Of a DNA stretch of 64,000 nucleotides, positions 1-64,000 are shown in pieces. A program made the position numbers and the translations under genes. The stretch lies in the NCBI GenBank assembly GCA_963697135.1, contig CAVOMZ010000013.1:180859-244858 (forward strand). Reading direction: 5' to 3'. The notes under the pieces are model-generated. The model saw only the letters and a program-made list of their open reading frames with translations, was not told the DNA's origin and did not search any database. Position 1 is the stretch's first letter. Every line of letters starts with the position of its first letter. This DNA is from an uncultured Chloroflexia bacterium (lineage in GTDB: Bacteria; Chloroflexota; Limnocylindria; Limnocylindrales; CSP1-4).

Positions 1-108
1 CTTACCATCGCCCGCGGCCTGACCGAGGCGATGGGCGCGCGGATCGAGGCAGGACCGAGCGAGCTGGGCGGCCTGGCGATCACCTTCCGCCTCTCATCGG
101 GCCAATGA
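1..108 (+). CDS. sensor histidine kinase, C-terminal end only (rest lies left of the window); paralog of the kinase at 2946-4526
   Basis: Frame 1 reads LTIARGLTEAMGARIEAGPSELGGLAITFRLSSGQ*, the end of an HATPase_c domain. It parallels the C-terminus of the 2946-4526 kinase (LAVVRGLIETMGGQINARPSELGGLAMDL). TGA 106-108 overlaps the next ATG (ATGA). Confidence 0.7.
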   Translation, partial: LTIARGLTEAMGARIEAGPSELGGLAITFRLSSGQ

Positions 109-866
109 GCGACCCCGGCGGAGCGCTCCTGCTCCTGGTCGAGGACGACCTGCCAACCCGTCGGGCGCTCGTGGCCAACCTGGCCGGGCACGGCCACCAG
201 GTGGACGAGGCCGGGACGGCCGCCGAGGGGCTGCGCGCCTGGGCGGCCCGCCGGCCCGACCTCGTCCTGCTCGATCTCGGACTGCCCGACCGCGACGGCC
301 TGAGCGTGATTCGGCAGATCCGGCGCGAGGCGGCGACGCCGATCCTCGTCCTGTCCGCCCGGGGCGACGAAGCCGATCGAGTGACGGCGCTCGAACAGGG
401 CGCGGACGATTACCTGACCAAGCCGTTCGGCCTGGCCGAGCTGCGGGCGAGGGTCAATGCCCTCCTGCGCCGGGCGGCCGGGCCGCTGGCCGATGCAAGC
501 GGCCGGCTGACGGTCGGCTCGGTGACCCTCGACGTGGCCCGCCGGGAGGTCCAGGTCGGCGGCGAGCCGATCGAGCTGACCCCGCGCGAGTACGAGCTGC
601 TCAAGGTCCTCCTCAGTCGGGCCGGCAGCGTGGTCACCCGGGGACGCCTCCTGCGGGCCGTGTGGGGCGCCGCCTATGCCGAGGAATCGCACTACCTCCA
701 CGTGTACGTGAGCCGGATCCGGCGGAAGCTGGCCGCGGCCGGCGCGCCCGACCTGATCGTGGCCGAGCCGGGCATCGGCTACCGGGTGCGCGCTCCAGGC
801 GACGGGCCCGAGGATGATCCGAGCGCGCCCTGGGCCCGGATTGAGGAATTCTTGAGCGCCTGTTGA
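105..866 (+). CDS. KdpE-like OmpR-family response regulator (copy 1)
   Basis: 253-aa ORF. Receiver motifs LLLVEDD, VLLDLGLPD and LTKPF. Winged-helix end AVWGAAYAEESHYLHVYVSRIRRKL...GIGYRV is typical of KdpE. Translationally coupled to the upstream kinase. Confidence 0.9.
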   Translation: MSDPGGALLLLVEDDLPTRRALVANLAGHGHQVDEAGTAAEGLRAWAARRPDLVLLDLGLPDRDGLSVIRQIRREAATPILVLSARGDEADRVTALEQGADDYLTKPFGLAELRARVNALLRRAAGPLADASGRLTVGSVTLDVARREVQVGGEPIELTPREYELLKVLLSRAGSVVTRGRLLRAVWGAAYAEESHYLHVYVSRIRRKLAAAGAPDLIVAEPGIGYRVRAPGDGPEDDPSAPWARIEEFLSAC

Positions 867-923
867 GGCCCGGCGGCCGGGCCCGCCCGCCGGCCTCTTG
901 GGGGCCGGCCCTACGGTCAGGCC

Positions 924-2931
924 GTGGAACCAGAGGAATCGCACGTCCCGAGTGACGGGATCGCCCTGCCCGGCCGCCGGCCGGGCGACCGGCGAGTCCG
1001 GGTGGCCCGCCCCCACTCGACCTACTTCCGGTACGAGGGGCCGGGAACCGTCACGGCCAAGCGCGAGGCGATCGCGCCGGTCGGCGTCCGCGAGACGGTC
1101 GCGACCGGCCTCCGCCGGACGGTCTTCGGGCGAGCGCTCGCCTCCGAGGAGGAGGGCGAGGAACGGCTGACCAAGGTCAAGGCCCTGGCTGTCTTCTCGA
1201 GCGACATGCTCTCGTCGGTCGCCTACGCCACCGAAGCCTCGATGTTCACCTTGCTCGCCGCGGGCACCGCGGCGCTCAGCCTGACCATCCCGATCTCGGT
1301 CGTCATCGTGGTGATCCTGTGGATCATCGTCATCTCCTACCGCCAGACGATCCGGGCCTACCCCAACGGCGGCGGGAGCTACATCGTGGCCAAGGACAAC
1401 CTGGGCACGACGGCCGGCCTGATCGCCGGCGCGGCCCTGCTGACGGACTACGTCCTGACCGTCTCGGTCAGCGTTGCGGCCGGGATCGCCGCGATCATCT
1501 CGGCCTTTCCTGGCCCGCTGGCGTCCTTCCGGATCGAGCTGTGCACCGTCGCGATCCTGGCGGTGATGCTGGTCAACCTTCGTGGCCTCCGCGAGAGCGG
1601 CACGGTCTTCGCGATCCCGACCTACCTGTTCGTCGTCATCACCCTGGGCATGATCGCGATCGGGATCAGCCGGACCCTGCTGGGCGACGCGCCCCAGGTG
1701 ACCGGCGTCGTGCCGGCCAGCGTGCCGCTCGAGTCGCTCAGCATCCTGCTGGTGATGCGGGCCTTCGCCGACGGCTGCAGCGCGATCACCGGGGTCGAGG
1801 CGGTCTCGAACGGGGTGCCGGCCTTCCGCCGGCCCGAGGCGGCCAACGCCCGGCTGACCCTGACGATGATGGGCGCCCTGGTGGCCATCATGTTCCTGGG
1901 GATCTCGACCCTGGCCGGGATCACCGGGGCCCTGCCGGCCGCCAACCACGAGACGGTGATGTCCCAGATCGGCCGGGCCACGTTCGGCACGGGTCCCCTG
2001 TACTACATCCTCCAGCTGGCCACCACCGGGATCCTCGATCCTCGCCGCCAACACGAGCTTCGCCGACTTTCCCCGGCTGGCCTCGATCCTGGCCCGGGAC
2101 GGGTTCATGCCCAGCGGCTTCGCCTTTCGCGGCGAGCGGCTCGCATTCAGCACGGGCATCGTCGCCCTGGCCCTCCTCGCCATCGTCATCCTGGTGGCCT
2201 TCGGCGGCACGGTCGATGCCCTGATCCCGCTGTACGCGATCGGCGTGTTCACCTCGATCACCCTGTCCCAGGCCGGCATGGTCCGGCACTGGCTCAACAA
2301 CAGGGGCGAGGGCTGGCGCAGGAGCGCCGCGATCAACGGCTTCGGCGCCTTCGCCACCCTGATCGTGACGATCGTCTTCGCGGTCGCCAAGTTCGCCCTC
2401 GGCGCCTGGCTGATCATCCTGATCATCCCGGTCCTCGTCGTGGCAATGCTCTTCATCCACCGCCAGTACGAGCGCCGCCGGCTCGAGACCCGGGTCCGGC
2501 CGGAGGCGATCATCCCGCCGCCAACCCGCCACCAGCGGGTGATCGTGCCAGTGCCCGAGGTGACCCGCGACGTGGTCCAGGCGATCCGCTTCGGCCGGAC
2601 GATGTCCGACGACGTGACCGCCGTCCACGTGACCGACGATCTCGAGCGGGGCGAGGAGCTCCGCGAGCGGTTCAGCCGGCAGCTGCCGGGGGTCCCCCTG
2701 GTGATCGTCGAGTCGCCCTATCGCAAGCTCGTCCGGCCGTTCGTCCGCTACCTGGAGTTCACGGCCCGCCAGGATCGCGACGAGCTGATCGTGGTGATCC
2801 TGCCCGAGTACGTGGCCCGCCATCGCTGGGAGCGGATCCTGTTCAATGAGAACGCCCGGCGGATCCGCGACGAGCTCCTGGGCAACCCGAACATCCTGGT
2901 CGCCCAGGTGCCCTTCCGACGCGACCTCTGA
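924..2931 (+). pseudogene. kimA: KimA-like APC-superfamily K+ importer with cytoplasmic C-terminal domain; one frameshift as assembled (near 2037)
   Basis: ORF 924-2849 (real to about 2036) continues in ORF 2107-2931. The joined protein matches Bacillus KimA block by block from memory: LTKVKALAVFSSDMLSSVAYATE, SYRQTIRAYPNGGGSYIV, GCSAITGVEAVSNGVPAF, (I)LAANTSFADFPRLASILARDGFMP, LIPLYAIGVF, VIVPV...VQAIRFG, VILPEYVARHRWERILFNENA. Removing G2037 (ATCCTC[G]ATCCTC) restores ILILAANTSF. The start (GTG 924) is uncertain. Confidence 0.75.
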
Positions 2932-7898: not shown

Positions 7899-10086
7899 AT
7901 GAGCCTCAATGAGTCGATCGAGCTCCTCAAGGGCACCCGCCGGTTCCAGCGGTTCGGCGGGCGAGGTGGCGGGCAGGCCGGCGGGCCGGCGGGTGCCCAG
8001 CGCCCCCGGGGGATCCTCGATCCGGACCTGCTCCGGGCCGCTCTCCCGGAGTCCGTGCGCAAGCTGAATCCGCGCTACCTGATCAAGAACCCGGTCATGT
8101 TCGTGGTCGAGATCACGGCCGCCCTGGTGACCCTGATCGCGGTCGCCAACGTGACCGGGTTCCAGCCGGTGAGCGGTCCATCCGGCTTCGGCTTCCAGGT
8201 CCAGATCGCGATCTGGCTGTGGTTCACCGTCCTGTTTGCGACCTACGCCGAGGCGGTCGCCGAGGCCCGCGGGCGGGCCCAGGCGGCGACCCTCCGCCGG
8301 GCGCGCTCGGTGACGCCAGGCCCATCGGCGGAAGAGCGATGGGACGCCGACGGGAGCCTCGAGCTGGTCGGCTCGGCCGAGCTCCGCCGGGGCGACGTCA
8401 TCGTCGTCCTCGAGGGCGAGACGATCCCCGGCGACGGAGACGTGATCGAGGGGATCGGCTTCGTCAACGAGTCGGCGATCACGGGCGAGTCCGCTCCCGT
8501 CCTGAAGGAGCCGGGCACCGACATCCGGAGCAGCGTCACCGGCGGGACGACCCTGACCAGCGACCAGCTGACGATCCGGATCAGCGCCGATCCGGGCGAG
8601 ACCTTCCTGGACCGGATGATCGCCCTCGTCGAGGGCGCCAAGCGCCAGCGGACGCCCAACGAGATCGCCCTGTCGATCCTGCTGGCCGGCCTGACGATCG
8701 TCTTCTTCCTGGCCGTGGTCACCCTCCGGCCATTCGGCGACTTCGCCGGCACGACGGTCGACACGGTCGCCCTCGTCGCCCTCCTCGTCTGCCTGATCCC
8801 GACCACGATCGGCGGGCTGCTGTCGGCGATCGGAATCGCGGGAATGGACCGGGTGGCCCGCTTCAACGTCCTGGCGATGAGCGGCCGGGCCGTCGAGGCC
8901 TCCGGCGATGTCGACGTGATCCTGCTCGACAAGACCGGCACGATCACCTACGGCAACCGCCTCGCCGCCTCGATCACCCCGGCCCCCGGCGTCACCGAGG
9001 AGGAGGCCGTGACGGCCGCCCTGGTCGCATCGGCCCACGACGAGACGCCAGAAGGCAAGTCCGTCGTCGAGCTGGCCCGACGGCGGCTGGCCGAGCTGAA
9101 GGCCCCAGGCGGCGCCGACGACGAAGCGGGCTTCAAGGCTCTCGCCGCCGCGATCATCGAGGACATCCCGTTCCGGGCCGAGACCCGCACGAGCGGGGTC
9201 CGGCTGGCCGGCGGCGAAGTCGTCCTGAAGGGTGCCGTTGATGCGATCGAGCACGACCTCGACGCCGCCCTGCCGCCGGCCATCCGGGACGAAACTGATC
9301 GCCTGTCCGACGCCGGCGCCACCCCCCTGGCGATGCGCCGGGACGGCCGGATCATCGGCCTGATTGAGCTCAAGGACACGGTCAAGGAAGGCCTCGTCGA
9401 GCGATTTGCGGAGTTCCGCCGGATGGGCATCCGGACGGTCATGGTGACCGGCGACAACCCCCGGACCGCGGCCACGATCGCCCGCGAGGCCGGCGTCGAC
9501 GACTTCATCGCCGAAGCCAAGCCCGAGGACAAGATCGGGTTCATCCGCAAGGAGCAGGCCGAGGGCCATCTCGTGGCGATGACCGGAGACGGCACGAACG
9601 ACGCTCCCGCCCTCGCCCAGGCCGACGTCGGGCTGGCCATGAACAGCGGTACGTCCGCGGCCAAGGAGGCGGCCAACATGGTCGACCTCGATTCGGACCC
9701 GACCAAGCTGCTGGAAGTCATTGCGATCGGCAAGCAGCTCCTGATCACCCGCGGCTCGATCACGACGTTCTCGATCTCGAACGACGTGGCCAAGTACTTC
9801 GCGATCGTGCCGGCGATGTTCGCCGCGGTCTATCCCGAGCTCAACCAGCTCAACATCATGGGCCTGTCGACGCCCCAGAGCGCGATCCTCTCGGCCGTCA
9901 TCTTCAACGCCCTGATCATCGTCGCCCTCATTCCGCTCGCCCTGCGCGGCGTCGGCTTCCGGCCGGCCTCCGGCGAGCGAGCTGCTCCAGCGCAACCTGC
10001 TGATCTACGGACTCGGCGGGATCATCGCCCCATTCATCGGAATCAAGGCGATCGACATCGTCGTGACCGCCCTTCACCTGGCATAG
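7899..10086 (+). pseudogene. kdpB: K+-transporting P-type ATPase subunit B; one frameshift near the 3' end as assembled (about 9972)
   Basis: Motifs [33 protein letters not shown]. After ...[11 protein letters not shown] the conserved tail (A)[36 protein letters not shown] continues in the next frame and ends at TAG 10084-10086. The in-frame reading to 10361 is Arg/Pro-rich junk. Confidence 0.95.
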
Positions 10087-45825: not shown

Positions 45826-45985
45826 ACAACTGAATAGGTCCGTTCGACCAAGGGAAGCCGGTGTGAATCCGGCGCTGTCGCGCAACTGTCAACGGGGAAC
45901 GGCCGGCCACGATGCCACTGGGCGCGAGCCCGGGAAGGCGGCCGGACGTGCTGATCCGTGAGCCAGGAGACCTGCTCGGACGGGT
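45826..45985 (+). promoter_or_regulatory. cobalamin (B12) riboswitch
   Basis: Contains the conserved core AAGGGAAGCCGGTGTGAATCCGGCGCTGTCGCGCAACTGT, then GCCACTGGG...CCCGGGAAGGC and the B12-box AGCCAGGAGACCTGC (45961-45975). It lies about 85 nt upstream of the SD and GTG of the next gene. Confidence 0.85.
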
Positions 45986-46069
45986 TGTCATCCCACCCGC
46001 GCAGATCGGTAGATGAACCTCTGACGGCAGGTTTCGCGGTGTGGGCCGTTCGCCGTCGGAGGAACCACC

Positions 46070-48135: not shown

Positions 48136-48947
48136 ACGCCCGAGCGCTGATCGTCTGGTCGCTGGCCGGCCTCGTCGTCGCCCTGTCAACCTCGAACCCG
48201 ATCTATCGGGCGATCATCGGCCTGATCGCCCTGAACGTCCTCCTCGGATGGCGACGGCCGGACCAGGATCTCGGCTTCCTGTTCCGCCTGATCGGGTTCA
48301 CGATGGCCGGGGCAGTCATCCTGAACGTCGTGGCCGGCCATGTCGGCGAGACGGTCCTGTTTGCGCTGCCGGACGGCTGGCCGATCATCGGTGGCCCGTG
48401 GACGCTCGAGTCGCTCGTGTACGGCCTGAATGCGGCCCTCGGATTGGCCGCGGCGATCCTGGTCGTTGCACCGCTCTCATACGTGGTCGAGCCGCACGAG
48501 CTGGTCGATGCCCTGCCCCACCCGGCCGAGCGAGCCGGGATCGTCGTCGCCGCCTCGCTCAACCTCGTGCCCGGCATCGGCCGCAGCTTCCGCCAGGTTC
48601 GCGATGCCCAGACGATGCGAGGCTGGCGGCCGAAGGGAATCCGGTCGTGGGCCGAGGTCCTGGTGCCGGTCGCCCTGACCGCGGTCGAAGGCTCGCTCGA
48701 GCTGGCCGAGGCAATGGAGTCGCGGGCATTCGGATCGGGACCACGGACCCGCTACGCGCCCAGCCGCTGGACCCGCTGGGATGTCCTGATCGTGGTCGCC
48801 TCCCTGGCCTCGATCGGGCTCGCGGTCTGGGCCAGGGCGGCCGGACTCGCCCCGGACTGGTATCCCTACCCGAGCGTGGCGATGCCCGAGGTCAGCCCGG
48901 CAATGCTGATCGCGGCCATCCTCCCGGCCGTGGCGATCCACCGATGA
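48132..48947 (+). CDS. ecfT: ECF transporter transmembrane (T, CbiQ-like) component
   Basis: ATG 48132 lies in the frame of ORF 48021-48947. Polytopic. Conserved C-terminal coupling region LAEAMESRAF. Confidence 0.85.
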   Translation: MNARALIVWSLAGLVVALSTSNPIYRAIIGLIALNVLLGWRRPDQDLGFLFRLIGFTMAGAVILNVVAGHVGETVLFALPDGWPIIGGPWTLESLVYGLNAALGLAAAILVVAPLSYVVEPHELVDALPHPAERAGIVVAASLNLVPGIGRSFRQVRDAQTMRGWRPKGIRSWAEVLVPVALTAVEGSLELAEAMESRAFGSGPRTRYAPSRWTRWDVLIVVASLASIGLAVWARAAGLAPDWYPYPSVAMPEVSPAMLIAAILPAVAIHR

Positions 48948-50430
48948 CCGCTCCCGACCGATCCGAAGCCCTGGCCCGGCTCGATCGGCTGTCGTACTGG
49001 TATCCGGGCGACATCCCGGCCCTCGCGGATGTCCGGCTCGACCTGCAGGCCGGCCTCACCGTCGTGGCCGGCCCGTCGGGCGGCGGGAAATCGTCGCTCC
49101 TGCGGGTCTTCAACGGCCTCGTCCCGCACTTCCACGGCGGCCGGATCTCGGGCCAGGCGACGGTCTTCGAGCGGGATGTCCTGACGACCCCGACCCGGAC
49201 CCTCGCCCGGGACGTGGGCTTCGTCTTCCAGGACCCCGAGCAGCAGGTGGTCTACGGCACGGTCGAACGCGAGGTCGCCTTTGGCCTCGAGAACCTCCAG
49301 GTCGACCGGGACGAGATGATCGGGCGGGTCGGCGAGGCGCTCGAGCGGCTGGGCCTCGAAAATCTCCGGCAGCGGAGCGTGGCGACCCTGTCCGGCGGCG
49401 AGCGCCAGCGGGTCGCGATCGCCTCGGTCATCGCGATGCGGCCGCGCCTGATCGCCTTCGACGAGCCGACCTCCGAGCTCGATCGATCGGGCGCCGAGGC
49501 GGTGATCACGGCTTCGCTCGATCTGGTCGCGGCCGGGACCGCGATCCTCGTCGCGGAGCACCGCCTCGAGCGACTGCTGCCGGTCGCGGATCGGGTCCTG
49601 GTGATCGAGGACGGCCGCCCGGTCGGACGCCTCGAGCCGCTCGGCGAACCCGCCCGAGCAGACAATGGGCCGCCGCTGATGCCGGACGACCTCCAGCCTG
49701 GCGGGCCCGCCTGGTCGTTCCGCGACCTGGCGGCCGGGCCGGCCGGGGTGCCCCTCGTCGAGTGCACCGACTTGACCGGCCGAAAGGGCGAGGTCAGCGC
49801 AATCGTCGGCCCGAATGGCAGCGGCAAGACGACCCTGCTCCGGACGCTGGCCGGGCTCCTGCCGCCGATCCGGGGCAGCGTCGAACGGGCTCCGGGCCGG
49901 ATCGCCTACCTGCCCCAGGATCCCGGGGCCCTCCTCCACCGCCCGACCCTCCTGGCCGAGGTCGCCTGGACGCTGGAGCACGCGCGGCCCGGTGGACTCC
50001 CGAGGATGTCGCGGCCGAGGCTCGGGCTGCCCTGGCCGAGTTTGGCCTGGCCGAGCTCGCCGAACGTGACCCGCGCGACCTGAGCAGTGGCCAGCGCCAG
50101 CGGGCCGCACTCGCCGTGATCCTGGCCGGTGGACCGACGATCGCCCTGCTCGACGAGCCGACCCGGGGCATGGACGGCCCGGCCCGCCAGGCCCTCGTCG
50201 GGGCGATCCGCCGCCTCCGGGCCGGTGGCTGCTCGGTCGTCATCGCGACCCACGATGAGCGGCTGATCCGCCAGGCTGCCGGCCGGATCGTCACGATCGA
50301 ATCGGGGACGGTCCGCGACCTGCCCGTGACAGACGGACCGTCCCGGCCCGGCGACGGCGATTGGGGCAACACGCACTGGTCCCGGCCGGCCGATCGCGCC
50401 CGTCACCCCGCTGGCGGCGGTCGCCAATGA
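48944..50430 (+). pseudogene. fused duplicated ECF/ABC ATPase (A-A'); one frameshift (about 49985)
   Basis: Two ABC modules: GPSGGGKSS...LSGGERQR...AFDEPTSELD (ORF 48248-50083 frame) and GPNGSGKTT, then after the shift LSSGQRQR...LLDEPTRGMD (ORF 49762-50430). Confidence 0.88.
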
Positions 50431-51254
50431 GCCTGGCCGGCCTGGTCGGAGCGTCGGTCATCGGGGCCATCCTGTTCCTCCTGCCGTACCTCGGAATCGA
50501 GCCACCCGGCGGGGCCATCGCCGCGTCGGCCGCGCTCGGCACGGTCGTCGCCTTCGGCGCGGTCGAGCTCGGGGCGCGGCGGCTCGACGCCAAGGGGATC
50601 GCCCTGCTCGCCGCGATCGCCGCCCTCGCTGCCGCGATGCGTCTCGCCCTCGTGACCGGGATCGCCGGCTTCAGCCCGTTCTTCCTGCTTGTCCTGTGCG
50701 CCGGATACACGTTCGGCCCGAGCTACGGCTTCCTGGCCGGCACGGTCGCGATGCTCGTCTCGGCGATCGTGACCGGCGGAATCGGGCCATGGCTGCCCTA
50801 CCAGATGTTCGCCTCGGGCTGGGTCGGCATGGGTGCCGGCTTCATCGGCGAGGCGCTGAGGGGATGGAGCGGAAGGATCAGCCGGCCGACCCGACGCGAC
50901 CTGATCGCCCTGGCCGGCTACGGCTTCGTCGCCGGCTTCGTCTACGGAATCGTCATGGACCTGTGGGACTGGGCGTTCTTCCAGGGCAGCCCGGACTTCG
51001 GCTTCGTCCCCGGCCTGGGCCTCGCCGGGACGCTCGCCCGATTCGGCCAGTTCTACCTCCTGACGTCCTTCGGCTACGACGCGTTCCGGGCAGTCGGCAA
51101 CGCCCTCCTCGTGCTGGCCCTGGGAACCGCTGTCCTGGCGACCCTCGCCCGGCTACGGGCAAGAGCGAGCTTCGAGATCGTCCCGATCGTGGACCCGTCG
51201 AGCGGCCTGGCGTCCCCGCCTGCTTGCCGGGGCCCTACGGCCCCTCGCGGCTGA
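50427..51254 (+). CDS. ECF transporter substrate-capture (S) component, substrate inferred to be a corrinoid
   Basis: ATG 50427 (ATGA overlap) lies in the frame of ORF 50361-51254. About six TM helices and Gly/Ala-rich. Last gene of the riboswitch-controlled operon. Confidence 0.7.
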   Translation: MSLAGLVGASVIGAILFLLPYLGIEPPGGAIAASAALGTVVAFGAVELGARRLDAKGIALLAAIAALAAAMRLALVTGIAGFSPFFLLVLCAGYTFGPSYGFLAGTVAMLVSAIVTGGIGPWLPYQMFASGWVGMGAGFIGEALRGWSGRISRPTRRDLIALAGYGFVAGFVYGIVMDLWDWAFFQGSPDFGFVPGLGLAGTLARFGQFYLLTSFGYDAFRAVGNALLVLALGTAVLATLARLRARASFEIVPIVDPSSGLASPPACRGPTAPRG

Positions 51255-52370
51255 CGAAGCGCTCCAGGCCGGCCAGCGCCTCGGGCAGGTCGAGCCGCCC
51301 GAACCCGAGCCGGACGCGGTTGCCGGGCTGTCCGAAGGTCGAGCCGGGGAGGAGCAGGACGCCCTCCGCTTCGACCAGCTCGGCGGCGAACCGGTCAGCG
51401 TCCCAGCCCGCGAATGCCCCTCGAGGGCGAGGCGCGGGAAGCCGACCGAGCCGGCCCGAGGCCGGACCCAGCCGAGCACATCCGGGCGATCGGCGATGAA
51501 GCGGTCGAGGGCGACCAGGTTGGCCCCGATGATCGAGCGCGATCGCTCGAGCACGGTCGCCTTCGCCCGCAAGCCGATCAGGGCCAGGAGCTCGGCCGGT
51601 GCCGAGGGACAGATCGTGGTGTAGTCCTTGAACGCGGCACAGCGGGCGAGCAGGTCACGATCCCGGCTGGCCAGCCAGCCGATCCGGAGGCCGGCCATCG
51701 CGAACGACTTCGACATCACGCCCAGGCTGACCCCATCCTCCAGCGTGTCGGCGCCGGTCGGCAGCCGGTCGGCCTCGTCGTACTCGAGGAAGCGGTAGAC
51801 CTCGTCGGAGAAGAGCCGGACGCCGGTCTCGGCGCACAGCTCGACGAGCTCTCGCCACTCGTCCTGGCTCGGCAGCATTCCGCTCGGGTTGTGCGGTGCG
51901 TTGACGACGATCAGGCGGGTGTTCGGACGGAGCTCCGTCTGGATCCGGGCCACGTCCAGGCGCCAGTCGTCGGTTGCCCGCAGCTCGTGCTTCGTGATCT
52001 CGGCCCCGGCCGCGAGCCCGGTCTCGTACAGGCTCTGGTAGCCCGGCCAGGTCACGATCGCATGGTCGTCCGGGCCGAGCACGACATTGAGCAGGCAGAA
52101 GATCGCCTCCTCGGCTCCCGAGAAGACGAGCACGTCGTCGGCCTCGAGCGAGTCGTACAGGCGGGCGATCTCCGCCCGCAGGAGGGGATGGCCACTCGAC
52201 TCGGTGTAGCCCAGGCGGAGGCCGTCCCACAGGCCTCTCGCCTCGTCGTCAGCCAGCTTCAGGAGCTCAGCCATCGGATAGCCCTCGACATCCGAGGCGC
52301 ACATCAGGTGGCGGACCGAGAACTCCCAGCGGGCGAAGTACCGCTCGAGCTCGAAGTCGGCGATCCTCAC
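51235..52370 (-). pseudogene. class I/II PLP-dependent aminotransferase; one frameshift near the 3' end (about 51418)
   Basis: ORF 51153-52370 carries NAPHNPSG and SKSFAMAGLRIGW. After ...FPRLALEG the conserved tail AFAGWDADRFAAELVEAEGVLLLPGSTFGQPGNRVRLGFGR...* continues one frame off in a G/C run and ends at TAG 51235. Confidence 0.85.
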
Positions 52371-52384: not shown

Positions 52385-53147
52385 CTAGTTGATCGCGACG
52401 AGCGCGGCGGTCAGCGCTCCGAACGTGGCCTGATCAAGGCCGCTGCCGGTCGCCAGCCAGCTCGGCTTCTCGCCCTTGGCCACGACCAGGGCATAGCCGT
52501 TCGAGGTCTGGACGAGGTCACCGGTCAGGTCCCCGAACGAGCCCGAACCGGCGCTCGAGCCGCTCGGCACGCAGCCCGACGAATCCGCGCAGAACGAGCC
52601 CTCGTCGAGCTCGAACGTCGCGTTGTCGGAGCGGCGCCGGAACTGGATCTGGATCCGGCCGCCGTTGGCCAGGCGATAGGTCCCGGCGACCAGCGACCAG
52701 CCCGCCGGCAGGACGGCGCAGTAGACCGGGAAGTTGACCGAGCTCGCGAACGATTGGTAGAAGTCCGGGGTGTCCTTCGCCCCGGAGCAGACCGAGGCGG
52801 CGCCCGACGGGCTCGGCTCCGGGCCGGCCGAGGCACTTGGCGTCGGGCTGGCGCCGGAGTCGCTCGGTGATGGTCCGGCGATGGTCGGAGGGGTCACGGG
52901 GCGGTTGAGGACGCGTCGAGGGCTCCACGCCCTGGCTCGGCGCGGTGCTCGGGGCCACGCTCGGGGCACTGCTCGAGAGGTCGGTCGGGGCCGTGCTCGG
53001 CGCCGTGCTCGGCGGCCCGGACGGCAATCCGGAGGTCGGTCCGATCGTCGGCGCACCGGACGAGCAGGCGACCGCGAGCAGGAGTGCACCGGCGATGAGC
53101 AGGGGAAGCCGGACGGTCCCGGCCGTCGGCGGGCGCATGGGCCTCAC
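52385..53147 (-). pseudogene. hypothetical lipoprotein; one frameshift (about 52913)
   Basis: Lipobox LLLAVAC and Ser/Pro/Thr linker (ORF 52518-53147) continue as ...PTIAGPSPSDSG...DTPDFYQSFASSVNFPVYCAVLPAGWSLVAGTYRLANGGRIQIQF... (ORF 52385-53089). Confidence 0.6.
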
Positions 53148-53396: not shown

Positions 53397-54160
53397 GTGG
53401 ATTCTCGCGGTCGGAGGCGGCGGCTCGTCGTGCTCCCGATCCTCGTCGCGCTGGGGCTGCTTGCCTCCGGGCCACACCCAGCGCTGGCGGCCTACCAGGC
53501 CTCGGCCGACTCGAACGAGTCGGCCTTTCGAAGCCCGTGCGTCGGGTTCCGGGACAGCCACCCGGCCCGGATGCTGGCGCTCGCCCTGACCGGGCTGCGC
53601 TCGCTCGGCTACTCGACGACCGGGTTCAGCGGGACCGGCTTCACCCACGCCAGCGTGCTGGCTCGAACCGTCAACGACTTCGGGTTCTACGTCCATTCGC
53701 ACGGGGACGAGTACTGGTATGCCCCGGGGCAGCGCCGCTACAACGGCTTTCGCGAGGACTCGGGCGACTGCAGCCAGGCCGTGATCTTCTCGAACCAGAT
53801 CGCCTCCGCCCGAGCCGGCCAATTCACGAACCTCGTGGTCGTCTCGACCTGCCACAACGCAGATCCCGGCACGACTTTGCCGGGCGCCTTCGGAATCGAC
53901 CGGACGAAGAGCCAGGCCGGGGGCAGCCATTTCTACCTGGGCTACCTCGGGATCGCCTATGACAACGACGAGCAGGCCTTTGAGACGGCCTTCTGGTCCG
54001 CGCTCGAGCGCGGCCGGAGCGTGGGAGCCGCGTTCGATCTCGGGCTGCTCCAGAACTTCAGCCATCCCCTCGAGGCCGACTGGTGGGGGACGTACACCTG
54101 GTCGGGCCGGGCCGGCGCCACGGTCGTTTGCCCACGCTGCGAAGCGCCGGCGCCCAATGA
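53397..54160 (+). CDS. secreted protein with His/Cys dyad context reminiscent of clan-CD (caspase/gingipain-like) peptidases; 3' end unresolved
   Basis: GTG 53397 follows GGGGAG. Signal peptide RRRRLVVLPILVALGLLASGPHPALA. FYVHSHGDEYW and LVVVSTCHNADPG each follow hydrophobic strands. The frame stays open to 54926, so the end is set at a possible junction with the next ATG. Confidence 0.45.
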
Positions 54161-55078
54161 GCGGGCGTCGGAGTGGCGGCGCGGATCGCCGGCAGGTTCG
54201 GCGGCGGCCGTGCTGATCGTCAGCGGGATCATGGTCATGGGAGGTCAGGCGATGGCGATCGAGCTTCGACCGGGAGCCGGGATGATGAACCGGTCGGCGC
54301 CTCGCCCGGCAACTGCCGCCGGCCTGGATGCGACCCAGGCGACGCTCCTTGCGGCCCAGCTCGACGCCCGGCTCGGCCTGGCCCAGCCGGCCAGCCGGAG
54401 CGTGATCCAGGCCATCGACCCGGGCACGGGCATGAACGTGGCCGAGGTGACCGAGCTCAACACCGCCGGCGTGCCGACGATGATCAGCCGGTTCGACTCG
54501 ACGGGTGGGCTCGTCTCGGCGGTCCGCCTCGGCTATGTCCCGCCGCCGGCGACCCGATCGCCAGTGCCGATGCGAGCGTGGCGGCCAGCGGGATCCTGGG
54601 CAAGGTCGGGATCTCGGCGGCCGGCAGCCCTGCCGTCTCGACCCGCGCCGCCGGAGGCTGGCTCGTCCGCTGGGTGCGCCAGGTCGGGACAATCCCGGTT
54701 CCCGGCGACGGGATCGGCGTCCAGCTCGACCCGGACGGCTCGTTCCACGGGATCGTCCGGACCCAGCACGGCCTGGCTCCGACACCGCCAGCACGATCGA
54801 CGCCGCCACCGCCCGGCGGCTTGGTTCTGCCCGGCTCGATGCCTGGCTGCCGGCTGCCATCCGGTCCGAAGCGACGATCAGCTCGGTCGGCCAGGGGTGG
54901 ATCGCCCCGAACGACACGTTCGGTGACACGGTCCCGGCCGGAAGCGCCGTCACCCTCCATCTCGCCTGGATCGTCCGGGTCGACGATGACCGGCAGCCTG
55001 GCCGACACCGTCGCAGGGCTGGAGATGGCGTTCGATGCCGGCACGGGCACCCCGCTCGGCGGAGACCTTCTCGAGTGA
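54157..55078 (+). pseudogene. hypothetical membrane-anchored protein; about 3-4 frameshifts
   Basis: The basic N-terminus plus TM (…AAAVLIVSGIMVMGG) and later segments lie in ORFs 53397-54926, 54173-55078 and 54505-55668 (GILGKVGISAAG...WLVRWVRQVGTIPVPGDGIGVQLDPDGSFHGIV; STIDAATARRLGSARLDAWLP...; LADTVAGLEMAFDAGTGTPLGGDLLE*). No family recognised. Confidence 0.35.
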
Positions 55079-56032
55079 CTCGAACCGCCGGCCCGGTCCT
55101 GGTCGCGCTGGGGACGACGATCCTGTCCGCCTGCGCCGCGTTGCCAGTCGTTTCCGGCGGAGTGTCGCCGGGCCGATCGGCCGCTCGAACGGCCTCGCCG
55201 GTCCCGGCCGAGGCGTTGGTCGTCCTGGCCGGCCAGGTCGGAGCGATGCGGCTCGGGACCGCCGACCCCCGGGCGGCCGATCGCGGGGTGGGCTTCGTCG
55301 ATGCGCCGGGGCTTCCGCCAACCGCCGCCTGGCTTTCGACCGGGGGCACGACGCTCGCGGCTACGACCCTTGCCGGGATGACGCTCGTGTCGACCCATGG
55401 CTTGTCGTGGCAGCCTGCGCCGGGCGAGCTCGGCCGAGCGCACCCCTGGCGGGCATTCGGATCGATCGACCCGGGCGCCGACAAGATCGCCTCGATCGAG
55501 GGGGAGCCCGGTTCAGGCCAGCCCGGGCGGCTCGTCGTTGCATCGCTCGACGGTGGCCCGATCGCCACGATCGCCATCGCCCAGGCGGCCGAGTCCGCCC
55601 CGGCCTGGCTCCCCGATGGCCGGGTCGTCGTGTGGTCCGCGACTCGAGCGACCGGCCGCGGCCACTGATCGCTGATCTGGCCACGGGCAGGCTCACGGTG
55701 GGCCGGGCGGCCCGGTCCGATCCGTCGCGATCGGCGGCGGGACGGTGGCCACGATCGATGAGACCGGCCTCATCCGAATGGAGTCCGTCGATGACTGGCT
55801 GGCGGGCGGGCCAGGCAGCGTCCGTGCGATCGGTGGGCCAATCGCCCGGCGAGGTGGTCAGCCAGGCCCAGCCGTCGCCCGATGGCCAGGAGCTGGCCGA
55901 GGTCTTCACGAACGAGGACGGCGACGCCGAGGCGATCGAAGTCGTCGCTGTCGTGACGGACACGAGATCGCCCGGCTCGCGCTCCCCGACGGGACGAACC
56001 GGGCGGTCGTCAGCTGGCTGGCGGCACCCTGA
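55075..56032 (+). pseudogene. hypothetical lipoprotein (possibly beta-propeller-like); about 4-5 frameshifts
   Basis: GTG 55075 overlaps the previous stop. Lipobox LGTTILSAC. Plausible segments alternate between ORFs 54505-55668, 55035-56045 and 55745-56032, ending ...GHEIARLALPDGTNRAVVSWLAAP*. Confidence 0.4.
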
Positions 56033-56061
56033 GCGCCGCGTGTGACCCGAGCGGAAATCGG

Positions 56062-56340
56062 TCAGGCCGTGACCGCCTGGAGCTCGTAGCTCGATTCGAT
56101 CGGCGCTTCCTCGGGGACCATCGTGCCGAGGATCTTGTGAATCGCGAGGAGGTGGACGCAACTACCCCAGGAGCCGAAGTAGTGGCAGGTGCAGTGCCAC
56201 TGGCCGGCATGGAGGCTGACGGTGTGGGTGTCGTTGTCGCCCCGGAACGTCAGGGAGAACTCGTCGAACGAGATCCGGTCGAGCTCGCGAGCGTAGCGAT
56301 TTGCCTTCTCGACCTGACCGATCAGCGAGCTGTGCATGCT
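56062..56340 (-). CDS. small SWIM zinc-finger protein
   Basis: ATG 56340 follows GGAGG and lies within ORF 56062-56454. The CxCx(n)CxH signature is WHCTCHYFGSWGSCVHLLA. Confidence 0.7.
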   Translation of the reverse strand, partial: SMHSSLIGQVEKANRYARELDRISFDEFSLTFRGDNDTHTVSLHAGQWHCTCHYFGSWGSCVHLLAIHKILGTMVPEEAPIESSYELQAVTA

Positions 56341-56503
56341 CCTGACCTCCGTCGCCCTTGCGTGGGCGCTTTCGAGGCCGCCGTCCGGTCCTGCACCGTC
56401 GACCGGTGATGGCGGTCGCTGGACCGACGATACACCCCGACGGGGGCCGAACACCTCCCAATCGCCCGGTCGGATGGGGCCTTCGTACCTCTCGCTCGCC
56501 GAG

Positions 56504-56919
56504 CTACGGCGCGTTCGTGCCCTCGCGGCCGAAGTCGTCCTCGAGCCGGACGACGTCGTCGAGCTCGGGCGTCGAGACCTCGATCAGCTCGGTCGGCTCG
56601 ATCGCCTCGAACCGGTGATGCGCCCGGCCGGGACCCGTCGGCGGTCGCCCGGGCCGAGCTCGATCGCCTGGATCGTGCCCGCCGTCGTCCTCGAGGTGAG
56701 CCGCAGCCGCCCGAGATGACGAGGATCCACTCGTCCTTCGCCTCGTGGTACTGGAGCGACAGCCGGCGGCCGGCGTCGATGACGATCAGCTTGCCGACGT
56801 AGCGGTCGGTCTGGGCCCAGATCAGCTCGTGGCCCCAGGGCTTGTCGACGCGGCGCGCGGGCGCGCCGGGTCGGAGCGCCGCCGCGAGCGGGGGCCTCGT
56901 GCTCAGGCAGCACGGACAA
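56504..56919 (-). pseudogene. cupin domain protein (type II phosphomannose-isomerase C-terminal-like); about three frameshifts
   Basis: TTG 56919 (MSVLPEHEAP...), then VDKPWGHELIWAQTDRYVGKLIVIDAGRRLSLQYHEAKDEWILVISG, RLRLT...IQAIELGPGD..VPAG, and HHRFEAIEPTELIEVSTPELDDVVRLEDDFGREGTNAP* lie in different frames. Confidence 0.7.
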
Positions 56920-58388
56920 GCTTCTCGCCGGCCCCGACGAGCGCGTCGCGCGCCTCCGCCGAGGTCGCCTCCGTGTACACCCGCACGAGCGGCTCGGTGC
57001 CGCTGAACCGGATCAGCAGCCACGAGCCGTCGGCGCGGAAGAACTTGAAGCCGTCGTTCGTGTCAGCGGCTTCGGTCCGGGTCGACCGGCTGGCCGGCGA
57101 GCTCCGTCGGGCGTGCTCGCGCGAGGTCCACGAGCAGCCGGTCCTTACGCCGGCGTACAGGTCCTCGCTCGACGTGGACGTCGATCCGCCGGTAGAACGA
57201 CGGCCCGGCGAGCTCGTGGAAGTGGGCGAGCGTCTTCGAGACCGGCCAGCGCCCGGCGGCCTTCTCGCGCAGGAACAGGTCGAGCAGGAGCAGGTCGGCG
57301 TAGATGCCGTCGCGCTCGGGCAGGTGCATCCCGAAGCCGAAGCCGCCCGACTCCTCGGCGCCCATCATCGCGCCGGTCTCGATCATCTTCGGGCCGATGA
57401 ACTTGAAGCCGACCGGGGTCTCGTGGACCTGGATCCCGTAGTGCTTCCCGAGCCGGGCCGCCATCGACGTGTTGTTGACGGTGATCGACGACCGGCTGGC
57501 GCAGGCCGCGGTGCTCGGCCAGGTAGTACATGAGCAGCCCGGTGACCTCGAGCTGGTGGATGAAGTTGCCCTGCTCGTCGGCCGCGCCGGCGCGGTCGGC
57601 GTCGCCGTCGAGGAGCAGCCCGAGGTCGTGCCGCCGCCGGCCAGGATCCCGAGCGCCTCGTCGATGTTCGGCCGGATCGGCTCGGGGTTGACGCCGCCGA
57701 AGTACGGGTTGCGCTCCTGGTGGATCTCGGTGACGCGGATCCGGCCGCCGGCGAGGAGGCGGCGGGAGCCAGCCCGCGCCGGCGCCCCACATCGGCTCGA
57801 CGAGGACGTCGACGTCGGCCGCCTTGAGGGCGTCGAGGTCGACCGTCCGCCGGACGAACCGCTCGTAGCCCTCGTACGGGTCGTAGCGCTCGACGAGGCC
57901 GGCCGCCTCGGCGTCGGCGAACGGCCGGCGCTCGATCGGCCGTGCCGCCGTTCGGGCGATCGCCGCCTCGAGGACGGCGAGGATGTCCGGCCCGGCGGCC
58001 GAGCCGGTCGGCGCCTTGACCTTGAAGCCGTTGTCGGTCCACGGGTTGTGGCTGGCGGTGATCACGATGCCGGCCGCGGCGCCGCGCTCGACGACCTCGT
58101 ACGAGCACATCTGGGTCGGCACGGCGTGCCGGGCGATAGGCGACCGGGATGTCGTGGGCGAGGAGGACCTCGGCGGCGGCCTCGGCGAAGTGCTCCGAGG
58201 CGAACCGCCGGTCGTAGGCGATGACGACGCCCTTGGCCTGCTCGCCCCGCTCGACGACGTAGCGCGCGACGCCGTCGGCGCAGCGGCGGACGTTCTCGAA
58301 CGTGAAGTCGTCGGCGATCCGGGCCCGCCAGCCGTCGGTGCCGAAGACGATCGTCGTCGGGCTGCGGGGCCTGGCTGATCGTGGTCAC
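56903..58388 (-). pseudogene. phosphomannomutase/phosphoglucomutase (alpha-D-phosphohexomutase family); at least six frameshifts
   Basis: GTG 58388 follows GGGAGG. FGTDGWRA, VITASHNPWTDNGFKV, GLLLDGDADRAG, ETPVGFKFIG, GAEESGGFG and RFSGTEPLVRVYTEA are spread over three frames (ORFs 58062-59132, 57145-59487, 57063-57464). Ends ...EKLVRAA* at 56903. Confidence 0.85.
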
Positions 58389-59487
58389 GGGTGGGCCTCC
58401 CGGATTGGGCACGCGGTCGAGGAGCGCCTCGATCCGGGCCTGGCGCGGCCGCGCGCCGGTGAGCAGCGCCACCGGCCAGTCGACGCGGCCATCGTAGCGT
58501 CCGGGCCGCGGCTGTCGCGCGGGCCGGCCTCGGGCCAGCCGGCCGGCGATCGCGCCCGACCACGAGGTCCGTCGTCGCCGGCCTCGACCGCCTCGCCGGG
58601 CTGGACGACGCGCCCGTCCCCGGCCGCCGAGCTCGCCGAGGAGCGGCGTCCAGCTGCCGAGGTCGCTCCAGCCGACGTCCATCGAGCCCATCACGACCTG
58701 GCCGGTCGCCGCGGCCGGCTCCATGACGGCGTAGTCGATGGAGATCGAGCGCAGCCGGTCGTAGGCCCGGCGAGGGCGCCGGCCCGGCGTCCCCGGCTCG
58801 ACGCCGATCATGGATGCCGGTCGGTGTACCGCTCGAGCGCGTCGCGGATCGCGCGGCGCTGCCACAGGAACATCCCGGCGTTCCAGGCGACGCCCGCGCT
58901 GCGTCGAACAGCTCGGCCGCCCGCGCCAGATTTGGCTTCTCCTCGAAGCCATGAGCGGGTACGCCTGGAGCCCGTCGATCGCTCGGCGCCGGTCGAGGTC
59001 CGGGAGCAGGTAGCCGTACTCGGTCGCCGGCCGGTCCAGCTGGATGCCGAGGGTCACGAGCGGCGCCTCGATGCCGAAGGCACCCATGCGCCAGCTCGCG
59101 CTCGGCGTCGCGCAGGACGTCGCGGAAGACACCTCGCGCTGCTCGATGGTCGTGGTCGGCCGGCAGGACCAGCATGACCTCGTCGTCCGGCGCGATCGAT
59201 CGCGAGGGTGGCGAGGGCGATCGCCGCCGCCGTGTTGCGGCCCGAGCGGCTCGGCGAGGATCGTGGCCGCGGGCAGCTGGGCTCGCGGACGATGCGCCGT
59301 AGCGCGCGGTCGGTGACGACGTAAGATCGCAGGCGCCGGGCTCGAGCTCAGGCCCGACGAGCCGGTCGACCGTCCGCTGGAGGAGCGTCTCGGTCGCCGA
59401 GCAGCGGCAGGAACGGCTTGGGGCGCTCCGGCGGCTCAGCGGCCACAGCCGCGTCCCGCCGCCGCCGGCCATGATCACCGCGTACAC
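58385..59487 (-). pseudogene. manC: mannose-1-phosphate guanylyltransferase; roughly fourteen frameshifts
   Basis: GTG 59487 lies 6 nt after TAGAAT. VYAVIMAGGGGTRLWPLSR, KPFLPLLGD, ETLLQRTVDRL, VVTDRAL, ATILAEPLG, RNTAAAIALA, VMLVLPADH, LVTLGIQLDRPATEYGYL, FEEKPNLARA, WNAGMFLW and IDYAVME alternate among all three frames. Confidence 0.8.
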
Positions 59488-59894
59488 CGCCCCATTCTAC
59501 CCGGGCGGACTGGCTCCGCACCTCGTTCAGCCGGGTTCGTTGCATCGCGCCACAGCGCGGCGACGAGCCTCGCAGCGCCAGTCCGTCTCGGGCCCGGCCC
59601 TCGGCCGATGGTCCCTGACAGCCGGGCCTCTGCTAAGACGCGAACCTGGTCGCGCCTATGGTCGTTCTGTCGGACGCTGACGGACTCAAAGGATCGCCGC
59701 GAAGGCACCGGGTCGTCGAACGTGCGCGTATCGCGACCGTGGCAGCCGGCTGGAAACGGCCGATTCGGTCCCGGATCTGCCACAGGCGCGATACGAGTTC
59801 GGGATCGGCAAGGAGACCGGAACGAACGGCCGACGGCGTCCGCCGAGACCAACGGCGCCGTGGAGCCGTGCGGCGCCCGGCCCGGGCGCCGCGC

Positions 59895-61095
<1,201 letters not shown>

Positions 61096-61160
61096 TGGGC
61101 TCCTAGTTTCGTGCTCGCGGAGGGTAGCACGGCGGGCGGCCGGGGCCCCGCGGCGGTCAT

Positions 61161-63389
61161 TCACTCGGCCTCGAGGACGAACAGCTGCGACCAGTAGTCG
61201 CCGTGGCTCGCGATCTCGTGGCGATCGACGTCGAACCACAGCCCGATCGCGGCCAGGTCGTCGCCGCCGCGGACCACGCGAGTTGTCCCGCTCGATCGTC
61301 TCGCCCCGGGCCGGCCAGGCCGAGATCCGGTAGCGCAGCCCGGGCTCGAGCCCGCTGAGGCGGAGCCGGCTGGGACCCGGGTTCGGGCCGGGTCAGGACC
61401 CGGTAGAAGCCGACGATCGCCGTGCGCCGATCCTCCGACACGACCAGCCAGCCGGTCTCGTGCCGTCATCGTCGAACGGGCTGCGCAGCCGGACGAACCG
61501 GCCGCGCTGGAGCACCTCGCGGTGGGCCTTGTAGAAGGCGACCTGGTCGGTCACCTCGGATCGCTCCTGCGGCCGACAGGGCGGTCGCATCGAGCTCGTA
61601 GCCGAAGTCGCCGAAGAAGGCCACGGCGGCCCGGGTCGAGAGCGGGGTTCGGCGACCGGTCTGGTGGTTCGGCACGGCGGAGACGTGGGCGCCCATCGAG
61701 CTCAAGCGGGTAGATCATCGAAGCGCCCCACTGGATCCGGAGCCGCTCGACCGCGTCGGTGTCGTCGCTCGTCCAGGCCTGCGGGGCGAAGGCGAGCATC
61801 CCCGGATCGAACCGGCCGCCGCCACTCGCGCAGGACTCGAAGAGGATCTCCGGGAAGGCTGCCGTCAGCCGGCTGTAGAGGTCGTAGACGCCGAGGATGT
61901 AGCGATGGAAGAACTCGCCCTGGCGGTCGGGCGGCAGGCTGGGCGAGGCCGGCTCGGTGATGTTCCGGTTCATGTCCCACTTGACGTAGGTGATCGGCGC
62001 ACTGGACAGGACCAGGGACAGGGCCTCGAACAGGTGGTCGACGATCTCCGGCCGGGACAGGTCGAGGACGTACTGGCTGCGCTGGGCCGTACGCGGCCGA
62101 CCGGCGACCCCGATCGCCCAGTCCGGATGGGCGGCGAACAGCTCGCTCCGCTCGCTGACCATCTCGGGTTCGATCCACAGCCCGAACTGCATTCCGAGGC
62201 TGGTGATCCGGGCGGCCAGCCCATCGAGCCCGTTGGGCAGCTTGCGCCGGTCGACGGTCCAGTCGCCGAGCGAGCTGTCGTCGTCATCCCGGGCGCCGAA
62301 CCAGCCGTCGTCGAGCACGAACAGCTCGATCCCCAGGCCCTGGGCGACCGTGGCGATCTCGACCAGCCGGGTCTCGTCGAAGTTGAAGTAGGTGCCTTCC
62401 CAGTTGTTGATCAGGACGGGCCTCGGCCGATCTCGCCAGGCGCCGCGGGCCAGCCGCTCGCGGTACAGCCGGTGATAGGCGTCGCTCAGGCCGCCCAGGC
62501 CGGTGCCGGACCAGGCCAGGACCGCCTCCGGCGTCGTCGAACGCTTCGCCCGGCTCGAGGACCCAGCCGAAGCCCTCCGGATGGATCCCGATCCGGGCCC
62601 GGGTCGTGCCGTACAGGCCGACCTCGGTCTCGGCCAGGAAATTGCCCGAGTAGACGAGGCTGAGCCCGTAGGCCTCGCCGGACGTCTCGGTCGTCGCTCG
62701 GGCGGCGCAGGATGATCGAACGGGTCGTGCTCGAGGCCGGACGCCCCCCGGAGGCTGCCGGTCGACTGCCGGCCGGGCCCGAGCGGGCGCTCGGTCACGT
62801 GCCGTTCGCGGGCCCAGGCGCCGCTCAGCTGGACCCGCGACCAGTCGTGGTCAGGCAGGTCGAGCGAGGCGCTCATCGCGGTCGTGATCCGGAGCCGGGT
62901 CGAGCCGGCGTTCCGGATCCGGACGCTCCGGGCGACGATCGGCTGGTCGCGGAAGATCGTGTACGACAGGCTGACCTCGACCCCGCTCGGGCGATCGACG
63001 AGGCGGATCTCGACGCTCTTCGCCTCGTCGTCTGATTCGGCGTAGGTCGAGGGCAGGCCGGGGATCGGGGCCTTGCCGGCGAAGACCCGGTAGCCGTCGT
63101 ACTCGAGCCGGAGGACGCTGCTGCCATCGGGCTGCTCGATCACCAGCCCGGGCACCCGGAAGTCGCCGCTGCCCGCGGTCGGCAGCTCGAGCGCGATCGG
63201 ATCGTCGACCCGGTTGTCGAAGCCGGCGAAGCCGGCCCGGCCCAGGTGGCGATAGGACCGGTCGGTGGCAGCGCGGCCGCCGAAGTGGAGCAGGCCGATC
63301 GAGCCGTCTTCGAGGACCCGGACGACATAGCTGATCTGGTCGTTATAGAGGTGGAGCTGGGCGGACTCGGCCAGCCACTCGATGTTCAC
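61161..63389 (-). pseudogene. GH36-family alpha-galactosidase; many frameshifts
   Basis: GTG 63389. ORF 61551-63731 carries LINNWEGTYFNFDE, FVLDDGWFG, YVKWDMNRN and ESCASGGGRFD. The middle (about 62500-62720) and the C-terminal 400 nt hop between ORFs 61466-61705, 61393-61590, 61157-61441 and 61161-61469, ending ...[14 protein letters not shown]. Confidence 0.8.
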
Positions 63390-63399
63390 GCGTCGTGCC

Positions 63400-64000
63400 T
63401 CATTCGATCGCCTCGAGGGTCCACGACCAGATGTAGGTTCCCGGCCCGACGAGGTACTCCGGCAGCGTGTCGGGGCCGCAGCTGGCCGTCCCGAGACCGC
63501 GATGGGCGGCGTCGAAGGTGGACGATCGTCTCGGCCGCCGGCTTCAGCTCGGCGTCGTGGGTCGCGCCGGCCAGGTCGGCCGCCCGGAAGTGGGTCGCCG
63601 ACGCCTGGTTCGGGGCGTCGAAGGTCAGGCGCAGGCCACGTCCAGCCGGGTCCCGCAGCTCGATCCAGCGGACCGTCGGCATGGCCGCCGTTCTCCTGGG
63701 GCCGGACGTAGCGGGTCGCCTGGTCGGTCACGCTGCCGGACCAGCGGCCCAGCAGGCCGCCCCGCTGCCGATCGGGGTACGTCTCGTGCGGGCCCGCTGC
63801 CGAAGTACTCCAGCTGTTCGAGGCCGGCGATCGTCTCGAGGACGGTGCCGATCCGGGCGACGTCGGTCAGCTCGGCAGGCAGGACCGCTTCCTCGTCGAT
63901 CCGGAGCGCGCCCCCGGCGAGCGGGGTCAGGCGCTGCTCGTGGGCGACGGTGATGCCGTCCGCGGCACGATACGTGCTCCTGACAACGGTCGTCCCACCA
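63400..64000 (-). pseudogene. GH2 beta-galactosidase, C-terminal domain only (gene continues right of the window); at least two frameshifts
   Basis: YVRPQENGGHAD / VRWIELRDPAGRGLRLTFDAPNQASATHF...ETIVHL / DAAHRGLGTASCGPDTLPEYLVGPGTYIWSWTLEAIE* is the LacZ small-chain-domain pattern, spread over three frames. TGA at 63400. Confidence 0.7.

Follow-up and report, generated by a model that had tools for sequence, protein, structure and literature searches.

Introduction

Insertion and deletion errors (indels) in the consensus of Nanopore assemblies cause frameshifted gene calls when coverage falls below ~40-fold, and ~40-fold R10.4 coverage is needed to obtain near-finished genomes (PMC9262707). 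Frameshifted calls in Nanopore-only and PacBio continuous long read (CLR) assemblies are assessed with IDEEL and corrected by short-read polishing or with proovframe (PMC9262707; PMC12313526). Here we analyse the frame breaks that interrupt conserved genes in a 64,000-nt stretch of DNA (the window), corresponding to positions 180859–244858 of contig C13 in the metagenome-assembled genome (MAG) of an uncultured Limnocylindrales bacterium (Chloroflexota). An earlier note, made from the letters of the window alone, had listed junctions at which proteins of core families continue in another frame, and had favoured assembly error over gene inactivation as the explanation. Judging from the comparisons reported below, it is very probable that these breaks are consensus indel errors of an insufficiently polished long-read assembly and not mutations of the organism.

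The source assembly amounts to 3.06 Mb, with a G+C content of 70–72%. Its contiguity for a soil-type MAG (28 contigs of up to 442 kb), its error signature and the nature of its relatives lead us to infer that it was built from long reads. A protein search returned relatives that are Limnocylindrales/Chloroflexota MAGs, and those in few contigs are Microflora Danica (MFD) MAGs, from a catalogue produced with Nanopore reads only, by assembly with Flye and a single round of polishing with Medaka (PMC12313526). The nearest genome, G006 (OY970185.1, MFD06435.bin.c.3), is a single circular contig that is nominally complete. It is collinear with the window, with a DNA identity of 91–95% over most of it and 84–88% in the region 46–59.5 kb, and is referred to below as the sister genome.

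Results

Genes broken in the window are intact in DNA of the same species

Same-species DNA was found by exact-protein look-up of MgtE and AccD, both intact in the window, whereas look-ups with eight other window proteins returned no record. Six Joint Genome Institute (JGI) metagenome contigs from six samples (L065 and L068–L072) were obtained, which are 98.3–99.4% identical to the window and cover ~17.7 kb of it. Contig L065 is 99.43% identical to positions 6612–16532 (9.9 kb) and differs from the window in length at three positions only, all of them in kdpB, the gene of a P-type ATPase (7899..10083, plus strand). At these sites the window has an extra C at 8317, lacks a T after 8346 and has another extra C at 9971, while kdpB on L065 is one intact gene of 728 aa.

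The same pattern was seen in the fatty-acid and lysine genes covered by L068–L071, which are 98.3–98.9% identical to window positions 25901–33727 and differ from it in length only at sites in accC, accA and lysC. The biotin carboxylase gene accC (25940..27308, minus strand) has extra bases in the window at 25967, 26061, 26319, 26564 and 26940, and one base is missing after 26092. Nevertheless, accC is an uninterrupted 455-aa open reading frame (ORF) in the sister genome, in two other genomes of the group (G008 and G010) and on L069 and L072, the latter from a further sample and encoding the same intact AccC protein. In accA (27872..28912, minus strand), the extra base at 28832/28833 is missing from all four of L068–L071 and cuts the gene, which is 346 aa long on L069 and L070, to an ORF of 296 aa. 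The aspartate kinase gene lysC (31790..33248, minus strand) lacks a G after 32499 and has an extra C at 33214, and on L068 it is an intact 455-aa gene with AA_kinase and ACT domains.

Altogether, all 12 length differences between the window and the six contigs are single-base, private to the window and located at frame breaks; none is in-frame or intergenic. The nine junctions listed in the earlier note that lie in the covered stretches were each confirmed by this DNA alignment, which added three more (8317, 8346 and 33214), and the reading of the breaks as consensus errors is borne out wherever it could be compared with intact genes from elsewhere.

These data bear on a different explanation, namely a true and very recent mass pseudogenisation in one strain, for example a hypermutator or a decaying lineage, in which further decay is yet to follow. 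The indels are physically present in the sequence, and mutations confined to a single strain would likewise be missing from other samples. However, every lesion that was checked is missing in five or six other samples, which weighs heavily against such an origin. Moreover, in accC the window differs from the same-species contigs by indels and substitutions at a ratio of ~6 to 66, with all length differences frameshifting, unlike what natural variation would produce.

Frame breaks are spread over the window and the whole genome

Long ORFs occur in all six frames of this 71% G+C genome, and because of this ORF lists are useless for deciding whether a frame is broken. Frame breaks were therefore located by two other means. 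The first was a frame hidden Markov model (HMM), a 3-periodic second-order Markov model trained on 414 long ORFs of the source genome with high G+C at third codon positions (GC3), with a seven-state Viterbi frame tracker that was run over all contigs. The second was a purpose-built, banded and frameshift-aware protein-to-DNA alignment, allowing +1, +2 and -1 steps, of the 261 ORFs of the syntenic region of the sister genome. The banded alignment replaced plain tblastn of the same ORFs, in which short frame segments were merged or lost and the output was swamped by low-complexity matches, as is usual for high-GC genomes. Gene names are based on Pfam for AA_permease_2, ACP_syn_III, ketoacyl-synt, Homoserine_dh, the genes of the right end and others.

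In the window the HMM reported 68 same-strand switches, 43 of which have no in-frame stop nearby and are therefore not gene ends. Where the true state is known from same-species DNA, the HMM found about 5 of the 12 indels, a sensitivity of ~40%, and it misses switch pairs that are closely spaced. When applied to ~18 kb of the same-species contigs, the model switched coding frame nowhere but at the boundaries of called genes, the sole exception being a short flicker to the opposite strand within one L068 gene. As no same-strand intragenic switch was produced on these error-free contigs, the signal cannot be attributed to noise of the method.

Genome-wide, the HMM identified 2,422 within-gene switches (0.79 per kb). 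None of the 28 contigs is free of them, the density in individual contigs being 0.3–2.0 per kb. Given the sensitivity of only ~40%, the true number of indels is probably about twice as high, ~5,000 by rough extrapolation. Their distribution is patchy: counts in 10-kb bins have a variance-to-mean ratio of 5.1, 12 of the 288 bins are empty, and 20-kb bins on contig C13 contain from 0 to 43 switches. Indels attributed to the window number 0–10 in each 4-kb bin as far as 56 kb (0–3 over much of this length), whereas the last two bins contain 42 (56–60 kb) and 22. Outside the window, fusA, which encodes elongation factor G, lies on contig C2 in four pieces in alternating frames, each of the genomes G006 and G008 having one full-length match.

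For pseudogenisation to explain these numbers, a load of at least 2,400 and probably ~5,000 lesions in 3 Mb, about one or more per gene, would have to be assumed, and a cell with fusA, accABCD, fabF/H, metK and lysC among its broken genes would not be viable. The indispensable genes named in the earlier note are indeed affected, accABCD and metK among them, and fusA can now be added. The genes also show no sign of decay. Frame-corrected translations of the selected genes contain zero stop codons, and their protein identity to the sister genome is 72–99% (91–99% outside the error-dense right end), so that the absence of stops and decay remarked upon before holds and again speaks against loss of function. 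On all these grounds we regard real mass pseudogenisation as very unlikely.

The densest block of the window, at 56.3–59.6 kb, is also the one most divergent from the sister genome (84.5% identity, compared with 93–95% elsewhere), as might be expected of a region that varies between strains and has a poor consensus. Breaks could thus have arisen when several co-occurring strains were merged into one consensus, rather than from basecalling or polishing noise, and the 0.6–1.7% difference between the window and same-species contigs from other samples shows that population diversity exists. Strain merging alone, however, would yield single-base indels only from noisy reads, and we consider it a doubtful, though by no means negligible, source of the breaks. 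It is in any case a contributing cause within the explanation by assembly artefact and not an alternative to it.

The indel spectrum is shared with the sister genome

The net shift at the HMM switches is +1 at 1,585 and -1 at 587 genome-wide, that is, insertions outnumber deletions by ~2.7 to 1. Both 1-nt insertions and 1-nt deletions are seen in the alignments, and on this point, as on the predominance of insertions, the earlier note was right. The full DNA alignment of the window to the sister genome contains 282 indels, of which 247 are single-base; in 267 the length is not divisible by three.

Using the sister genome as a clean reference had to be rejected, given that it carries frameshifts of its own. 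Three of these, opposite window positions 8741 and 9109 in kdpB and 29660 in accD, were confirmed by comparison with the same-species contigs; accD is split into 101 and 214 aa in the sister genome, whereas the window and four of the contigs have it as a gene of 313 aa. The thrC gene looks split there as well. Indels were consequently assigned to either genome by the local likelihood of which one changes frame, a procedure with an accuracy of ~75% at sites whose true state is known, which attributed ~113 to the window and ~96 to the sister genome (in 62 kb), leaving 58 unclear. The two sets form different blocks, those of the sister genome lying mainly opposite window positions 36–52 kb and those of the window mainly at 52–64 kb.

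Single-base insertions are biased in both genomes. A CpG is created by 52% of those in the window and 46% of those in the sister genome, against a null expectation of 30% (p = 4e-4 and 4e-3, respectively), and only 23% and 22% lie beside an identical base, against 46% (p = 2e-4 and 2e-5). The statement that insertions are not confined to homopolymers can thus be strengthened, as they avoid them. Among deletions, neither the CpG-creating nor the homopolymer-avoiding bias was found. Because the same signature occurs at other positions in the sister genome, an MFD MAG, it looks like a property of Nanopore/Flye/Medaka-type consensus calling in very G+C-rich DNA. Its presence in a MAG of a Nanopore-only catalogue is also at odds with pseudogenisation of a single strain.

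The nature of the sites is relevant to a further possibility, that the cell tolerates genuine indels through pervasive programmed frameshifting, transcriptional slippage or RNA insertion/deletion editing. Conservation crosses each junction without stops, which is also what recoding would produce. However, the positions of the breaks are not conserved: the codons concerned belong to unbroken ORFs in same-species contigs and in sister genomes. The indel contexts inspected are diverse, with no common slippery motif seen in them (no formal motif search was made) and a statistical CpG bias only, and +1 and -1 shifts both occur, sometimes 30–100 nt apart within one gene. We know of no pervasive recoding or RNA-correction system of such a kind in bacteria. 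True indels in the DNA that are undone by recoding or at the RNA level would constitute an unprecedented bacterial system, the existence of which seems to us extremely improbable, and tolerance of genuine indels by any of these routes is just as hard to credit.

Frame breaks in individual genes

The errors that we propose could be placed gene by gene. At the junctions listed in the earlier note the HMM agreed, in most cases within ~5 nt, with those at 26319 and 37035 being off by 10–13 nt. Junctions in fabH, fabF and accC that the HMM missed were recovered by alignment to the sister genome, and the frameshift-aware alignment and sister-genome comparison proposed as checks in that note reproduced almost all of its junctions.

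Near the left end, the gene of an AA_permease_2 transporter, labelled kimA-like in the earlier note (863..2928, plus strand), has a +1 shift at 2037 (2036 by HMM) and a second event at ~902; aligned with frameshifts allowed, it is 95% identical to a 688-aa ORF of the sister genome and has no stops. The event at 9971 in kdpB was placed at 9977 by the HMM and at 9969 by the sister-genome alignment.

In the fatty-acid cluster, fabH (Pfam ACP_syn_III; 21676..22867, minus strand) is 97% identical to a 397-aa ORF of the sister genome and has a +1 shift at ~22840. It is followed by the gene of a biotin-lipoyl carrier protein, accB in the earlier note (22867..23378, minus strand), with a -1 shift at ~23183 (HMM) or 23194 (alignment), and by fabF (Pfam ketoacyl-synt; 23378..24634, minus strand), with a -1 shift at ~24573 and a +1 shift at ~24485, which matches a 419-aa ORF of the sister genome at 94% identity without stops. 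The adjoining metallophosphoesterase gene (24634..25375, minus strand) has a +1 shift at ~24988 (24990 by HMM). In accC, alignment to the ORF of the sister genome gave events at 26939, 26563, 26319, 26095, 26061 and 25967, three of which were also detected by the HMM (26319, 26566 and 26939). The frame-corrected protein is 98% identical and has no stops, and the DNA alignment of the region to the sister genome shows six single-base indels in addition to one upstream of fabZ. The break in accA was placed at 28833 by the HMM. A second biotin-lipoyl carrier gene is found at 27311–27865 inside accDABC, in addition to the one at 22867–23378 that adjoins fabH/fabF.

Further to the right, the first break in lysC was located at 32502 by the HMM and at 32498 by alignment. 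The stretch 33263..35015 (plus strand), which contains a dienelactone hydrolase gene and then a gene labelled GNAT in the earlier note, has a +1 shift at ~33749 (HMM 33747) in the former and a -1 shift at ~34274 (HMM 34276) in the latter. The genes labelled thrC in the earlier note and hom (Pfam Homoserine_dh) occupy 36029..38499 on the minus strand. Events in thrC at ~36232 and ~37035 come from the HMM alone, since thrC is broken in the sister genome too, while the +1 shift in hom at ~38109 was found both by the HMM and by alignment to a 423-aa ORF of the sister genome. In the oxidoreductase gene labelled CrtI-like (40973..42685, minus strand), the HMM switches at ~41184, ~41734, ~41823 and ~42647; a 484-aa ORF of the sister genome (L010:6421-7875) covers the whole of this stretch, but only at reduced single-frame identity.

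The region 45825..52370 comprises an operon headed by a cobalamin riboswitch (plus strand) and a neighbouring aminotransferase gene (minus strand), with HMM switches at ~46757, ~48097 (approximate), 49982 and 51414, the last being placed at 51415 by the sister-genome alignment. For the DUF4430 protein of this operon, a junction had been proposed at 48025–48032; a switch does occur within the gene, but its position of 48097 is only a rough match. Gene boundaries in the operon should be read with the breaks at ~46757, 48097 and 49982 in mind. A lipoprotein gene, so labelled in the earlier note (52388..53141, minus strand), has events at ~52895 and ~52915 by sister-genome alignment.

The error-dense block extends over 54083..64000, with ~5–10 single-base indels per kb. 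In the genes selected from 54–64 kb, alignment to the sister genome gave 43 events, compared with ~20 HMM switches right of 54.5 kb, in keeping with the several dozen junctions that had been noticed right of 53.4 kb. Among the genes named by Pfam in this block, the frameshift-aware alignment counted 8 events in phosphoglucomutase (56906–58388), 7 in metK (59898–61095) and at least 5 in a GH36 melibiase (61164 onward). Over 4.1 kb of DNA alignment to the sister genome, the right end has 27 gap openings and an identity of 93.5%.

Other features of the window

A stretch of 1.6 kb at 19287–20899 has no counterpart in the sister genome, relative to which it is an insertion. Except for 100 nt that match contig C23 and a direct repeat of 45 nt at the left edge, it is single-copy in the genome. 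Three ORFs inside or overlapping it have no Pfam match. Between two genes at 59554–59894, the window has ~340 nt where the sister genome has only ~46 nt, and this sequence is single-copy by blastn. Both segments had been considered as candidate repeats, and this was rejected, as they are essentially single-copy and without a Pfam match.

The cobalamin riboswitch at the head of the operon described above (45825–45993, Rfam RF00174, 104.5 bits) is full-length and has no obvious damage. No tRNAs were found in the window, and with this sole and apparently intact riboswitch a test for damage to structured RNAs was uninformative.

Completeness of the source genome and its relatives

The estimated marker completeness of the source genome is 62.8%, although its size is normal for the genus. 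Neither rpoB nor the 23S rRNA gene was found anywhere in the source assembly, and therefore a chromosomal region is missing from it and not merely broken; the low completeness is in part a true absence for the same reason. In the sister genome, both genes lie at ~1.86–1.88 Mb.

Across the relatives, marker completeness is 62–77% in few-contig genomes (90% in the sister genome) and 80–92% in many-contig genomes, while sizes are similar. The rpoB gene is spread over several frames in G010 and G007, two other few-contig genomes of the genus, whereas it is a single frame of 1163 aa in G006, G003 and the many-contig G008. Furthermore, G007 has no intact accC.

Discussion

Most likely, noisy long reads were the basis of the source assembly, with a coverage that was modest or locally low and with no short-read polishing. 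Where the signal is weak or conflicting, the consensus caller would emit an extra base or, less often, drop one, the extra base being preferentially a G or C that makes a CpG and not the extension of a homopolymer. Each error would shift the apparent frame while the underlying gene is intact, which would be the reason why conservation continues in the other frame without stops or decay. The dense blocks may be due to low local coverage or to a mixture of strains.

Several points weigh against this explanation. The status of the indels as errors is deduced from comparison with other assemblies. Only ~17.7 kb of the 64-kb window is covered by same-species DNA, and the dense block at 54–64 kb lies outside this part; for that block, two metagenome scans with metK gave nothing above 96% protein identity. 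The assignment of indels to one or the other of two error-bearing genomes has the limited accuracy given above. The bias of insertions towards positions outside homopolymers is different from the homopolymer deletions of classic Nanopore data. Finally, gyrA is intact in the source genome (852 aa), although intact long genes of this kind are expected if error is patchy.

The breaks have no biological significance of their own, as the genes concerned would be ordinary and intact in nature. Their practical importance lies in the fact that the source genome, which probably contains several thousand frameshift errors, is a species representative in the genome collection that we searched. Gene calls, protein clusters, completeness estimates and pseudogene counts derived from it are unreliable, and split, truncated, fused or "novel" ORFs should be checked first by frameshift-aware alignment. 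In addition, OY970185.1 is unsuitable as a clean reference, having dense error blocks despite its circular and nominally complete status. The finding of CpG-creating, homopolymer-avoiding insertions in two high-GC MAGs may be of interest to developers of polishing tools.

How do these breaks compare with known causes of interrupted genes? Decaying genomes, such as those of Mycobacterium leprae and Sodalis, accumulate nonsense mutations and deletions under relaxed selection, with essential genes spared and lesions shared across the population. The source genome resembles them in having many genes interrupted by frameshifts, but here essential genes are broken, nonsense codons are absent, the proteins are conserved and the lesions are missing from same-species DNA elsewhere. 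The continuation of a protein across a single-nucleotide offset is reminiscent of programmed ribosomal frameshifting, as in prfB, dnaX and IS3-family transposases. Programmed sites, however, have slippery motifs and positions that are conserved among relatives, whereas the sites described here are unique to one assembly and their contexts are diverse.

The artefacts of Nanopore-only assemblies offer the closest parallel, in spite of some differences. Classic Nanopore errors are homopolymer-associated and often deletions, whereas in this 71% G+C genome insertions predominate ~2.7 to 1, avoid homopolymers and preferentially make CpG; likewise, low coding density related to error has been flagged mainly in low-GC, homopolymer-rich archaea (PMC12313526), and the present case is a high-GC bacterium. 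In other respects the likeness is extensive. As in Nanopore-only assemblies, single-base indels break otherwise intact genes throughout the genome, marker completeness is lowered at a normal genome size, the density of breaks depends on locality, probably through coverage, and the indels are missing from independent assemblies of the same species.

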